From assembly GCA_039934255.1 (NCBI GenBank), contig JBDTML010000073.1:1-44728 (forward strand): 44,728 nt of DNA, read 5' to 3'. The notes under the pieces are model-generated. The model worked only from the letters and a program-made list of their open reading frames with translations, was not told the DNA's origin and did not search any database. Every line of letters begins with the position of its first letter. The stretch's first letter is position 1. The DNA comes from Acidobacteriota bacterium (lineage in GTDB: Bacteria > Acidobacteriota > Thermoanaerobaculia > UBA5066). Positions 3,917-36,938 of this stretch are shown here, one piece after another. The translations under genes were made by a program, and so were the position numbers.

Positions 3917-4678
3917 ATGATCATCACCGTTGCGAACCAGAAGGGCGGCGTCGGGAAGACCACGACGGCGATCAATCTCGCCGCTGCGCTAGCCCAGAAG
4001 GGCCTCCGCACACTCCTCGTCGACCTGGACCCGCAAGGCAATTCGACCATGTCCTTCCTCGACCGCAAGGATGTGGACAAGTCGATGTACGACGTCCTGA
4101 CCGACCCGAACGTTTCGGTATTCGACATCATCAAACCCACGAAGCTGCCGAAACTCACCGTCGCTCCGGCTCGCATCTCGCTCGCAAAAGTCGAGTCCAA
4201 GCTCCTGGGAGAGATCGACGGCCACTTCAGGCTGAAGGACAAGTTTCAGGTCGTTCGGGAATCCGGGGAGTACGACGCCATCCTCATCGACACGCCGCCC
4301 ACGCTCGGCATGATCACGGTGAATGCGCTCGTCGCCTCCACGCACATCCTGATTCCGATCCAGTCATCCTATTTCGCGCTGGAGGGAACGGACGACCTGC
4401 TCGAGACGATTGAGAAGATCAAGAGCCGTCCGAATCCGAATCTCCAGATCCTCGGCGTCGTGATCACGCTGCACGACAAGCGCACGACCTTGGGAAAGGA
4501 CATTCAGGGCCAGATCGAAGGTGTCTTCAAAGGCAAGCTGTTCAAGACGACGATTTCGAAGTCGATACGCCTCGAGGAGTCGCCCGCGTACCGAGAATCC
4601 ATCTTCACGTTCGCTCCGCGTTCGTCAGGCGCGCTCGAGTACTACAGCCTGACGGAGGAGATACTTTCCCGTGTCTAA
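3917..4678 (+). CDS. parA: ParA/Soj family partitioning ATPase
   Basis: Deviant Walker A (ANQKGGVGKTTT), VDLDPQGN, IDTPP and IRLEESP. Confidence 0.93.
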   Translation: MIITVANQKGGVGKTTTAINLAAALAQKGLRTLLVDLDPQGNSTMSFLDRKDVDKSMYDVLTDPNVSVFDIIKPTKLPKLTVAPARISLAKVESKLLGEIDGHFRLKDKFQVVRESGEYDAILIDTPPTLGMITVNALVASTHILIPIQSSYFALEGTDDLLETIEKIKSRPNPNLQILGVVITLHDKRTTLGKDIQGQIEGVFKGKLFKTTISKSIRLEESPAYRESIFTFAPRSSGALEYYSLTEEILSRV

Positions 4679-5582
4679 GCGCCGTGGCCTTCCCGAAACC
4701 TCGCGTATGCGGCACGACTCGCACTTCGTCGACCAGCTCGTTCGCGCCGACGAACTTCCGGTCGGGCGCCGCATTCCAATTCACCTCATCGAAGCGAATC
4801 CGGATCAGCCCCGGAGTGTCATGGGAGACCTCTCGGAGCTCACGAAGTCCATCGTCGATAAGGGCGTTCTCGAGCCCATTCTGGTCCGCCCCCGCGGCGA
4901 TGGGCGTTTCACGATTATTTCTGGAGAGCGTCGATTTCGAGCCTCCCTTGATGCGGGTCTCGCTGAAATACCGTGCATTGAAATGGACGTCCCGGATAAC
5001 GAGCTTCTCGAAATCGCACTCATCGAGAATCTACAGCGCAAGGATCTCAGCCCATTCGAAGAAGCGGAGGGGTACCGGGCTCTTCAGGAGCGCCACGGAT
5101 ACACGCATGAGCAGGTCGCGGATGCGGTGGGGAAGTCGCGTGTCACGATCACCGAGGCGTTGTCCATCGCGCGACTGCCGGATCGTGTCCAGGCCGAATG
5201 TCGGCGCGCCGACATTGGCTCTCGATCCTTCCTCCTGGAGCTCGGACGCCTCAAGGACGAGGACCTAATGCTCGCTGCCGTGGCGGAAATGGCGGGCGGC
5301 GAAGGCTTCAGTCGCGACGCCCTTCGGGAGGCGAAGAAGGACGCCCGCCGAGGAACCGGAGCAGGCACAAAACTCGGTGGGCTCAAGAAGGCGTACTCGC
5401 TCGACTTCAGTCCGGCGAACAGGAACTACAAGGTCAGTCTCGTCCTCAAGGGGCGCATGCACAAGAAGGACGAGATCCTCGAAGCGATCAGGGATCTCGC
5501 ACGCCGGATCGAGGCAGGAGACATCGACCTCGAGACGCAGGGCCGCTTCGTGAAAGTTAAAGCGAAGAAGAGAACTTCTTAG
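4671..5582 (+). CDS. parB: ParB/Spo0J family partitioning protein (divergent HTH region)
   Basis: NPDQPR, GVLEPILVRP, ISGERRFRA (CTP-binding box), ENLQRKDLSPFEEA and an HTH; overlaps the parA stop. Confidence 0.9.
   Translation: MSKRRGLPETSRMRHDSHFVDQLVRADELPVGRRIPIHLIEANPDQPRSVMGDLSELTKSIVDKGVLEPILVRPRGDGRFTIISGERRFRASLDAGLAEIPCIEMDVPDNELLEIALIENLQRKDLSPFEEAEGYRALQERHGYTHEQVADAVGKSRVTITEALSIARLPDRVQAECRRADIGSRSFLLELGRLKDEDLMLAAVAEMAGGEGFSRDALREAKKDARRGTGAGTKLGGLKKAYSLDFSPANRNYKVSLVLKGRMHKKDEILEAIRDLARRIEAGDIDLETQGRFVKVKAKKRTS
5197..5216. repeat. Perfect 20-bp palindrome inside parB; candidate non-canonical parS site
   Basis: AATGTCGGCG|CGCCGACATT; the 16-bp core TGTCGGCGCGCCGACA has the length and TGT..ACA ends of canonical parS. 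The palindrome is certain; the parS role is inferred. Confidence 0.55.
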
Positions 5583-5746: not shown

Positions 5747-5774
5747 ATTTAACATAATAAATATTATCGGACAT
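5747..5774 (-). other. dif: dif site (XerC/XerD chromosome dimer resolution site)
   Basis: Minus strand ATGTCCGATAA-TATTTA-TTATGTTAAAT, an 11-6-11 layout; the XerD arm is identical to E. coli dif (TTATGTTAAAT); intergenic AT-rich island in a GC-rich genome. Confidence 0.9.
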
Positions 5775-5818
5775 TGCGTTATGGCGTAAGAATCGGGATT
5801 ACTCGGCTACGATCTGCC

Positions 5819-10430
<4,612 letters not shown>

Positions 10431-31612: not shown

Positions 31613-32539
31613 TCAAGCCCGGGGGTGCGTCCGGTCGTAGACCTTCCGGACCCGCGAACGTGAGACGTGGGTGTAGATCTCGGTCGTCGCGATGTCCGCG
31701 TGGCCGAGCATCATCTGCACGGCCCTGAGATCGGCGTCGTTGTCGACGAGATGGGTGGCGAACGCATGCCGAAGGACGTGTGGCGACACGGCGGACGCCG
31801 CCAGGCCCGCCTTCCGCGCGGCGGCCTTGAGCGCCAGGAAGACGGTCTGCCGCGTGATCGGCTTCCCCCGTGCGCCCGGGAACACCCATCGCCCCGCGGC
31901 ACCCGATGCTTTGGACCGTGCGGCCTTCAGATAGCGCGCCACCCAGCGCGCCGAGGAATCTGCGATCGGCACGACCCTCTCCTTCGCGCCCTTGCCGCGT
32001 ACCACGATGAATCCTTCAGGCAGGCGCAGCGCTTCGACGGGCAATCCGGCGACCTCGGAGACGCGGAGGCCGCACGCATAAAGCAGCTCGAACAAAGCGC
32101 GGTTGCGCAGACCCTTCGGCGTCGTCACGTCGGGCCCGTCCAGGAGACGGGTCACTTCCTCCGGCGAGAGGACTTTCGGCAGCATCGCCCACCGGCGGGC
32201 GTTCGTGAGGTCGGCCGTCGGATCCATCTCGAGAATCTTCTCGGCGGCGAGAAATCCGTAAAGACCGCGGAGCGCCGAAGTGAGTCTCGCGAGGGTGCGC
32301 GGCGACATTCCTTCCGCGCGTCGGATCCCGAGATAGGCGACGATGTCGCCCCGCTGGACCCGGGACGGATTCGCCCGCGAGGACACGAGATGCGCCCCGA
32401 ACGCCGCGAGATCGCGGTGATAAGCCTCGAGCGTGTTCGAAGAGAGGCCCTTTTCCGCCGAAAGATAGTCGAGGTAGAGCGGGAGGTGCTTCTGAAAGAA
32501 GACGCCGGCCGGCGTTTTGGCAGGAGATCCCGAACTCAC
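31613..32539 (-). CDS. xerD: Tyrosine recombinase XerD
   Basis: LSSNTLEAY, LLYACGLRVSE, GKGAKERVVP and SPHVLRHAFATHL..ADLRAVQMMLGHADIATTEIYTHV (XerD-type tail). Confidence 0.9.
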   Translation of the reverse strand: MSSGSPAKTPAGVFFQKHLPLYLDYLSAEKGLSSNTLEAYHRDLAAFGAHLVSSRANPSRVQRGDIVAYLGIRRAEGMSPRTLARLTSALRGLYGFLAAEKILEMDPTADLTNARRWAMLPKVLSPEEVTRLLDGPDVTTPKGLRNRALFELLYACGLRVSEVAGLPVEALRLPEGFIVVRGKGAKERVVPIADSSARWVARYLKAARSKASGAAGRWVFPGARGKPITRQTVFLALKAAARKAGLAASAVSPHVLRHAFATHLVDNDADLRAVQMMLGHADIATTEIYTHVSRSRVRKVYDRTHPRA

Positions 32540-36696: not shown

Positions 36697-36938
36697 CCGC
36701 CGCGTTCCTCATAGATCAGGGACCGCATCGTCTCCCAGTCGGAGAGGTCGACGCCGGGCTGAACGCCCTTTCCCTTGAAGCTGCCGTCGCGCAGCCGGAA
36801 TTCTTGCTTTCGCTCCCGCCCGGAGAGGACCTCGCGGAGTCCCTCCTCGAGGAGGGAGCGCAGGGTGCGCCCCTCCCTTTCCGCAGCTTTCCGCGCCTCA
36901 CGCATCAACGGGTCGCTGATCTCGACCGTCGTCTTCAT
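36693..36938 (-). CDS. vapB: VapB-type RHH antitoxin
   Basis: MKTTVEISDPL..ARKAAEREGRTLRSLLEEGLR ribbon-helix-helix; overlaps the vapC start. Confidence 0.88.
   Translation of the reverse strand: MKTTVEISDPLMREARKAAEREGRTLRSLLEEGLREVLSGRERKQEFRLRDGSFKGKGVQPGVDLSDWETMRSLIYEERGG

Follow-up and report, generated by a model that had tools for sequence, protein, structure and literature searches.

The palindrome and the gene that contains it

The question raised by this locus is whether a perfect palindrome, nested in the reading frame of a parB gene and close to a dif-like site, is the DNA site on which the encoded ParB would load, and whether the replication terminus could thereby possess a partition system of its own. 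The window, i.e. the whole stretch of 44,728 nucleotides that was analysed, contains at positions 5197-5216 the 20-mer AATGTCGGCGCGCCGACATT, which the original prediction took as its unit and described as a perfect dyad within parB encoding E-C-R-R-A-D-I. This could be confirmed. The 20-mer comprises the in-frame codons 176 to 182 of the ORF 4671-5582 on the plus strand, and the resulting peptide stands just past the helix-turn-helix proper, yet within the Pfam HTH_ParB match. The element considered below as a candidate parS2 is the slightly shorter 18-bp palindrome A-TGTCGGC-GC-GCCGACA-T at 5198-5215 (no strand assigned), with a 16-bp core at 5199-5214. As had been claimed, this core has the length of parS and its TGT and ACA ends together with other inner bases: 6/16 positions are common to canonical parS, both ends included, and the inner 10 bases differ. 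The canonical consensus, TGTTNCACGTGAAACA, is not matched by the window palindrome.

A palindrome alone is weak evidence here, because 20-bp palindromes are not rare in a genome of 68% G+C. Indeed, the assembly to which the window belongs (G000; 3.43 Mb in 375 contigs, 82% complete) holds 33 perfect palindromes of at least 20 bp, for about 11 expected from base composition, and the bare palindrome was dropped as evidence on that account; its weight comes from conservation. The window itself includes one perfect palindrome of at least 20 bp. At a length of at least 18 bp, it has a second one, centred near 36848, and no others. The 16-bp core occurs a single time in the 3.43-Mb assembly, which extends to the whole of G000 the earlier statement that only one copy was seen; when up to two mismatches are allowed, three further places appear, every one with a damaged arm.

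The host gene, parB2 (P0001; 4671-5582, plus strand), encodes a ParB paralogue of 303 residues, whose N-terminal domain is of the CTP-binding type and is followed by a helix-turn-helix, the C-terminal part being basic. Pfam ParB_N (PF02195) is matched over residues 33-122 (3e-26, 91.7 bits for a cut-off of 26.3) and HTH_ParB (PF17762) over residues 124-186 (4e-15, 56.2 bits for a cut-off of 22.6); residues 190-303, where a C-terminal dimerisation domain would be expected, are without a Pfam match. ParB2 passes the TIGR00180 model (140.7 bits, cut-off 58.45) and fails the Noc model TIGR04285 (145.9 bits for a cut-off of 315), so that it is not a Noc. GERRxRA (GxxRxxA) and ENLQR are the CTP-binding and hydrolysis motifs of ParB proteins. 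In ParB2, they are present as GERRFRA and ENLQRKDL, which align with the same motifs in the closest solved structure, T. thermophilus Spo0J (1vz0, 7e-39), and in the ParB family protein 7bnk. The last 8 bases of parA2 (3917-4678, plus strand) are shared with the beginning of parB2. The parA2 gene encodes a ParA/Soj-type ATPase of 253 residues with the deviant Walker A motif KGGVGKT, matching Pfam AAA_31 (2e-56) and CbiA (1e-27) as well as NCBIfam ParA_partition at 6e-33, under the cut-off of that model. In a comparison of 29 loci of the class, ParA2 (59-75% identical, with KGGVGKT) is encoded directly upstream of parB2 in 24, and the five loci without an adjacent ParA2 all belong to the family designated f14.

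Two ParB genes are carried by G000, namely parB2 in the window and parB1 on contig C113, where mnmG, rsmG, parA1, and parB1 stand in a row of the classical origin type. The only perfect canonical parS of the assembly, TGTTTCACGTGAAACA, lies on the same contig (L007) at 5395-5410, at the junction of rsmG and parA1. ParB2 and ParB1 are about 45% identical in their N-terminal and helix-turn-helix parts. The recognition helix of ParB2 reads SRVTITEALSIA and its next helix SRSFLLEL, the canonical counterparts being ARSTVANALRLL and GHARALL. Since a canonical ParB1 and a canonical parS exist elsewhere in the genome, ParB2 is a paralogue for which a separate site is required. A third, distant ParB (33% identity) was noticed at G614:C2:726171-726953 and G572:C2:920-1702, in both cases on the second contig of a two-contig genome, which is possibly a plasmid or a second replicon.

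Conservation of the site within and beyond parB2

Within the family of the window, 62/63 genomes have a ParB match, and in nearly all of them ParB1 is accompanied by a ParB2 orthologue (59-94% identity). The codon alignment comprises 55 ParB2 orthologues, the interrupted gene of G032 being excluded, and provides the check suggested along with the original prediction, namely whether palindromy persists at synonymous positions across parB orthologues; it is kept across the 55. Codons 177-181 read TGT CGG CGC GCC GAC in 55/55, except at codon 179 (52 CGC, 2 CGT, and 1 CAC); codon 176 is GAA in 49/54, and codon 182 is free, with ATC in 30, ATT in 23, and ATA in 2 of the 55 orthologues. Invariant residues close by (V173, S184, L188, L189, and L194) use three to five codons each. 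Among the 139 degenerate columns conserved in at least 50/55 sequences, only six (1, 2, 177, 178, 180, and 181) are restricted to a single codon, columns 1 and 2 corresponding to the overlap with parA2. Third-position diversity, computed in six-codon windows over the gene, reaches its minimum at codons 176-181, with 0.04, the mean over the gene being 0.49. In the remainder of these genes, TGT represents 7% of the Cys codons, CGG 21% of the Arg codons, and GAA 28% of the Glu codons. As the third base of codon 182 varies and codons 177-181 are fixed, the constrained unit is 18 bp long, A-TGTCGGCGCGCCGACA-T; the 20-bp unit thus stands as a palindrome and has to be shortened as a unit under constraint. 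These alignments show that selection holds the sequence at the DNA level and not via the protein.

The 16-mer, with at most one mismatch, was found in 57/63 genomes of the family, and its reversed control in 2/63. Of the 57, 56 have a match within parB2, i.e. in 55 intact genes and in the broken gene of G032. One additional place with one mismatch occurs in G012, and a one-mismatch match of G011, lying in a non-ParB gene (L063 scores 52), was rejected as a site and taken as chance. The six genomes devoid of the 16-mer are those devoid of a ParB2-type match; this co-absence was not retained as independent evidence and is uninformative because, in this family, the site is within parB2. Scanning genomes for the core and for its distance to dif, which had also been suggested, yields for the family one copy per genome, in parB2 and near dif.

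Beyond the family, ParB2 orthologues (E of 1e-40 or better) occur in 292/301 genomes of the class sample, and the 16-mer with at most one mismatch in 188/301. In the phylum sample, the exact motif TGTCGGC-RY-GCCGACA is present in 109/401 genomes (reversed control 2/401) and missing from 292/401, counted irrespective of ParB2 content; related genomes are not independent, so that such counts overstate the number of independent events. Across the phylum, there are one or a few copies per genome. The class and phylum tallies include the unpublished genomes G066, G157, G185, G220, G223, and G469, and no claim depends on one of them.

The place of the site differs between families. In the sister family f2, three loci have it within parB2 (about 55% identical), with K176 coded AAA, the A being retained. 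In f8 and f11, TGTCGGC-AT-GCCGACA stands at +528 from the parB2 start in 7/7 loci, an offset as in the window, where the encoded peptide is CRHADI. Past dif, some 3 kb on from this site, there is a second copy, which is an exact AT-centre copy in three loci, a CA-centre copy in one, and a 14-bp core in two; the seventh locus ends at a contig end, where the region of the second copy is cut. This second copy falls about where an LptF_LptG-type gene would end. With the start of parB2 as reference, the site of f10, f15, f17, and f20 (7/7 loci) falls at -834 to -877 and the start of parA2 at -745 to -786, which puts the site 75-115 bp upstream of parA2; the internal ParB2 peptide is there VQALGI or similar. 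The site is also upstream of the operon in f16, f19, and f21, and clusters are found in f19, with seven copies within 1.6 kb in G316, three in G292, and two in G320. The seven copies of G316, a 10-Mb genome, occupy positions 10167-11795 of L176 (G316:C15), upstream of parA2-parB2, with the centres GC, AC, and GT, and this cluster looks like a multi-site centromere. In f5 and f13, a single copy stands in the AT-rich spacer preceding rnpB, the gene for the RNase P RNA (Rfam RF00010, 241-317 bits), at a distance of 81-302 bp from the 5' end of that gene, for instance at 10561 in L170, 10115 in L183, and 10181 in L185. Where both are on the same contig, this copy is about 23-230 kb away from parB2, whose internal peptide MCREAGI is encoded by the non-palindromic codons TGC CGC GAG GCC GGC. 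In one f13 genome (G081), ParA2 and ParB2 are present and the site was not found. Finally, two other classes have the site at +528 within parB2 (G336 and G595) or 1.5-5 kb upstream (G614, G572, and G350).

Both 7-bp arms are identical in all these copies, variation is confined to the central two bases (GC, GT/AC, or AT), and the flanks of the copies are mostly A and T. Copies lying outside parB2 in other families exclude a purely coding explanation, and the AT-centre copies of f8 and f11, which have changed jointly, point to one binder with two-fold symmetry. By this comparison, the motif is older and wider than its place within parB2, and it travels with the parA2-parB2-dif module across Acidobacteriota. 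The original prediction of a site belonging to this parB gene therefore needs to be divided: the site is present in the gene, and it is not private to it, the motif being phylum-wide.

The family f14 forms an exception. ParB2 is found beside dif in its 5/5 complete genomes (L186-L190), in a more divergent form (about 46% identical), and ParA2 is absent from the 20 kb fetched around parB2 in 5/5 loci. No RY-centre site was found in this family; 3/5 genomes have sites with exact arms and a different centre, located 165-400 kb away from parB2. A replacement palindrome was sought by a half-site search over the five loci and was not retained, the search giving only the inner part of dif and the 14-bp CCGATCnnGATCGG, which is conserved within the gene upstream of parB2 in 4/5 loci. 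These features fit a decaying or rewired system.

dif and the position of the terminus

The original prediction placed a dif site about 530 bp from the palindrome, and a dif-like site indeed lies about 550 bp downstream. This XerC/XerD-type site, ATTTAACATAA-TAAATA-TTATCGGACAT, covers positions 5747-5774 (no strand assigned), has an 11-6-11 architecture, and is conserved beside parB2 across the class; it resembles the dif of E. coli. It stands immediately behind parB2, in a spacer that is the only AT-rich one here. An ORF encoding 784 residues and starting right after it (5774-8128, plus strand) has two LptF_LptG matches, so that lptF and lptG appear to be fused. On the same contig, xerD (31616-32476, minus strand; TIGR02225, 334 bits for a cut-off of 329.6) lies 26 kb from dif and encodes the recombinase expected to act there; a second Xer-like gene of G000 is on contig C321.

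The linkage between the two sites is maintained among relatives. In the family, a dif-like site occurs 423-899 bp after the palindrome in 29/30 loci, the thirtieth ending at a contig end. It follows parB2 in 20/20 further loci of the class, 16 of them within 260 bp of the stop codon, and in nine more loci at 0.1-5.3 kb. The dif-like site is single in 4/5 near-complete genomes (G031, G055, G054, and G009). In the fifth, G010, a weaker copy exists in addition to the main site, about 1 Mb away from it (G010:C1:2715946-2715971), with the arms kept and another central region; this copy is possibly the attachment site of a Xer-using element. In f5, dif-like sites are located 3-5 kb after parB2; dif was also sought near the palindrome of this family, and none occurs within 20 kb when up to eight mismatches are allowed.

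In five complete genomes made of one contig, the distance from parB1 to parB2 is 0.42-0.50 of the circle, i.e. the parA2-parB2 module is opposite the origin-type parAB1 locus, and neither the site nor the genes of the parB2 system are origin-proximal. G-C skew was sampled in G031, which belongs to the genus of the window, with ten 20-kb samples on each side of the site. The skew is weak, averaging +0.018 on the left and -0.011 on the right (Mann-Whitney p = 0.026 on 20 samples), and the cumulative skew peaks at 2.04-2.09 Mb, the site being at 2.038 Mb. In G055, the skew is noisier and the turn, which is approximate, falls about 60 kb from the site. The G-C skew within the window was set aside as evidence for the terminus, the left flank of dif being too short and the signal noisy. 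The placement at the terminus that had been predicted agrees with these positions, parB2 and dif being opposite parB1 in complete genomes and at the skew turn in G031.

A candidate partition system of the terminus

A ParA gene adjoining the ParB gene and a conserved palindrome in or beside the operon are both found here, as expected of ParABS systems. The palindrome is very probably the cognate cis site of ParB2, hence the designation candidate parS2, and we infer from linkage that ParB2 is the binder. Comparison across genomes thus lends support to the loading site at the terminus that was predicted for this ParB, all the computational checks suggested along with it having turned out favourably. 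We propose that ParA2 and ParB2 would form a second ParABS-type system, linked physically to dif at the terminus and orthogonal to that of the origin.

A conserved DNA site of the terminus could also be recognised by another binder, for instance a protein that organises Ter, a transcription factor, or a factor accessory to XerCD/FtsK, with ParB2 loading elsewhere or non-specifically. Families f5 and f13, whose sole copy is upstream of rnpB and tens of kilobases from parB2, speak for this explanation, as does f14, which retains ParB2 at dif without a clear site. We nevertheless hold it to be rather improbable, since in most families the site is either internal to parB2 or 75-115 bp ahead of parA2, where a cognate centromere or operator is usually placed, and has a parS-like geometry, i.e. 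a 16-bp dyad with TGT and ACA ends. Moreover, the same f14 that is devoid of the RY-centre site is also devoid of ParA2 in the 20 kb around parB2, and ParB1 is already the partner of the canonical parS in G000.

The explanations that invoke the transcript or the protein fare worse. It is very unlikely that the palindrome acts as an RNA hairpin of the parB2 mRNA (8-bp stem and 4-nt loop) controlling translation, stability, or processing. Indeed, whereas a 60-nt stretch folds with the palindrome as a hairpin (-26 kcal/mol) and synonymous-site conservation would be compatible with such a role, the arms never covary and are identical in every copy seen, the same sequence recurs in untranslated spacers upstream of parA2 and rnpB and in clusters, the would-be loop has changed symmetrically from GC to AT in f8 and f11, including in the extragenic second copy, and no Rfam family is matched there. 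As for a by-product of the conserved peptide ECRRADI combined with codon bias, in other words chance, it is already refuted and keeps a negligible probability. The excess of perfect palindromes of at least 20 bp in G000 (33 for about 11 expected) and the preferred status of the codons CGC, GCC, and GAC are in its favour, but the non-preferred TGT (7%), CGG (21%), and GAA (28%) are fixed or nearly so and the motif occurs outside genes as well. Furthermore, orthologues without the site have other peptides at this place, VQALGI or MCREAGI (TGC CGC), and the peptide therefore follows the DNA. Taken together, identical arms without covariation, untranslated copies, clusters, and jointly changing copies indicate the site of a dimeric DNA-binding protein and not an RNA stem or a coding constraint.

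If the palindrome is indeed the cognate site of ParB2, a ParB2 dimer would read both TGTCGGC arms through its helix-turn-helix, close as a CTP-dependent clamp, and spread over a few kilobases including dif, clamp closure being suggested because the GERRxRA and ENLQR motifs are intact in ParB2. Before termination, nucleoid-bound ParA2 would bring this single cargo to mid-nucleoid; afterwards, it would part the sister termini as type I systems do low-copy plasmids. In this way, FtsK and XerCD would find dif at the septum as it closes. The sites located upstream of parA2 would probably serve as the operator of the operon too, allowing autoregulation. It is conceivable, although we put it forward tentatively and would not bet on it, that many Acidobacteriota have two orthogonal ParABS systems on one chromosome, the second of which, at dif, positions and separates the terminus.

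Active partition systems are textbook devices of origins or plasmids, and to our knowledge, the holding and separation of the terminus outside enterobacteria and Caulobacter are largely open. If the proposal is true, it would reveal a new use of ParABS, with a ParA-ParB pair and its own site joined to dif across a major soil phylum, and a partition machine would take over the task that MatP or ZapT accomplish through tethering in other phyla, handing dif to FtsK and XerCD. A testable handle on terminus segregation is offered by two small proteins and an 18-bp site, and a new orthogonal ParB/parS pair for the labelling of DNA loci could be gained. Likewise, the ECRRADI of ParB2 would be an amino-acid sequence dictated by the binding site of the protein itself, and thus a clean example of a coding sequence shaped by the DNA target of its product. 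The literature searched, which lacks most subscription journals, contained no account of a dif-linked ParABS or of this motif, absence from print being thus unproven, and the 16-mer searched as text was likewise found in no paper. In the parts of the review PMC7022226 reached by a term search, Acidobacteria and a terminus parS are not mentioned. What is new here is the site and its chromosomal address, the ParABS machinery itself being known.

Compared with the chromosomal ParABS systems, i.e. Soj/Spo0J-parS of B. subtilis and T. thermophilus and ParAB-parS of Caulobacter, the locus shares the succession of a small KGGVGKT ParA and a ParB with ParB_N, helix-turn-helix, GERRxRA, and ENLQR, as well as, within or close to the operon, a perfect dyad of 16 bp that opens with TGT and closes with ACA. 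The B. subtilis spo0J gene provides a precedent for a parS within a parB gene. Unlike in these systems, however, the candidate parS2 differs in its inner 10 bases, with 6/16 positions in common, ParAB2 is at dif and the terminus and not near oriC, and it shares its chromosome with a canonical origin-type ParAB1-parS, usually with one site per genome.

Orthogonal ParABS systems are also known from multipartite genomes, such as ParAB2-parS2 of Vibrio cholerae and the replicon-specific parS of Burkholderia, where they belong to separate replicons and lie near the origins of these. The Acidobacteriota locus resembles them in having a second ParB paralogue with its own palindromic site and, presumably, no cross-talk between the systems, whereas both loci appear on one chromosome, as in the five one-contig genomes, and the second system marks the terminus. 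The Noc-NBS system of Firmicutes is likewise based on a ParB duplicate with a different palindrome of the 16-bp class, binding being predicted in the present case, and the solved structures of Noc are matched by ParB2 at about 1e-30. Noc uses many sites, from which the terminus is left free, and is not known to have a ParA partner, whereas ParB2 has a dedicated ParA2 and would use one or a few sites at the terminus. Finally, MatP-matS of enterobacteria and ZapT of Caulobacter, which organise Ter or link it to the divisome, offer a functional parallel, as a sequence-specific mark of the terminus near dif with a possible coupling of Ter to the division site. MatP acts throughout a macrodomain by way of some two dozen matS sites. 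These proteins have folds unrelated to the present ones, and the Acidobacteriota locus would instead employ a ParB/ParA pair and one to seven sites, no more than a few kilobases away from dif.
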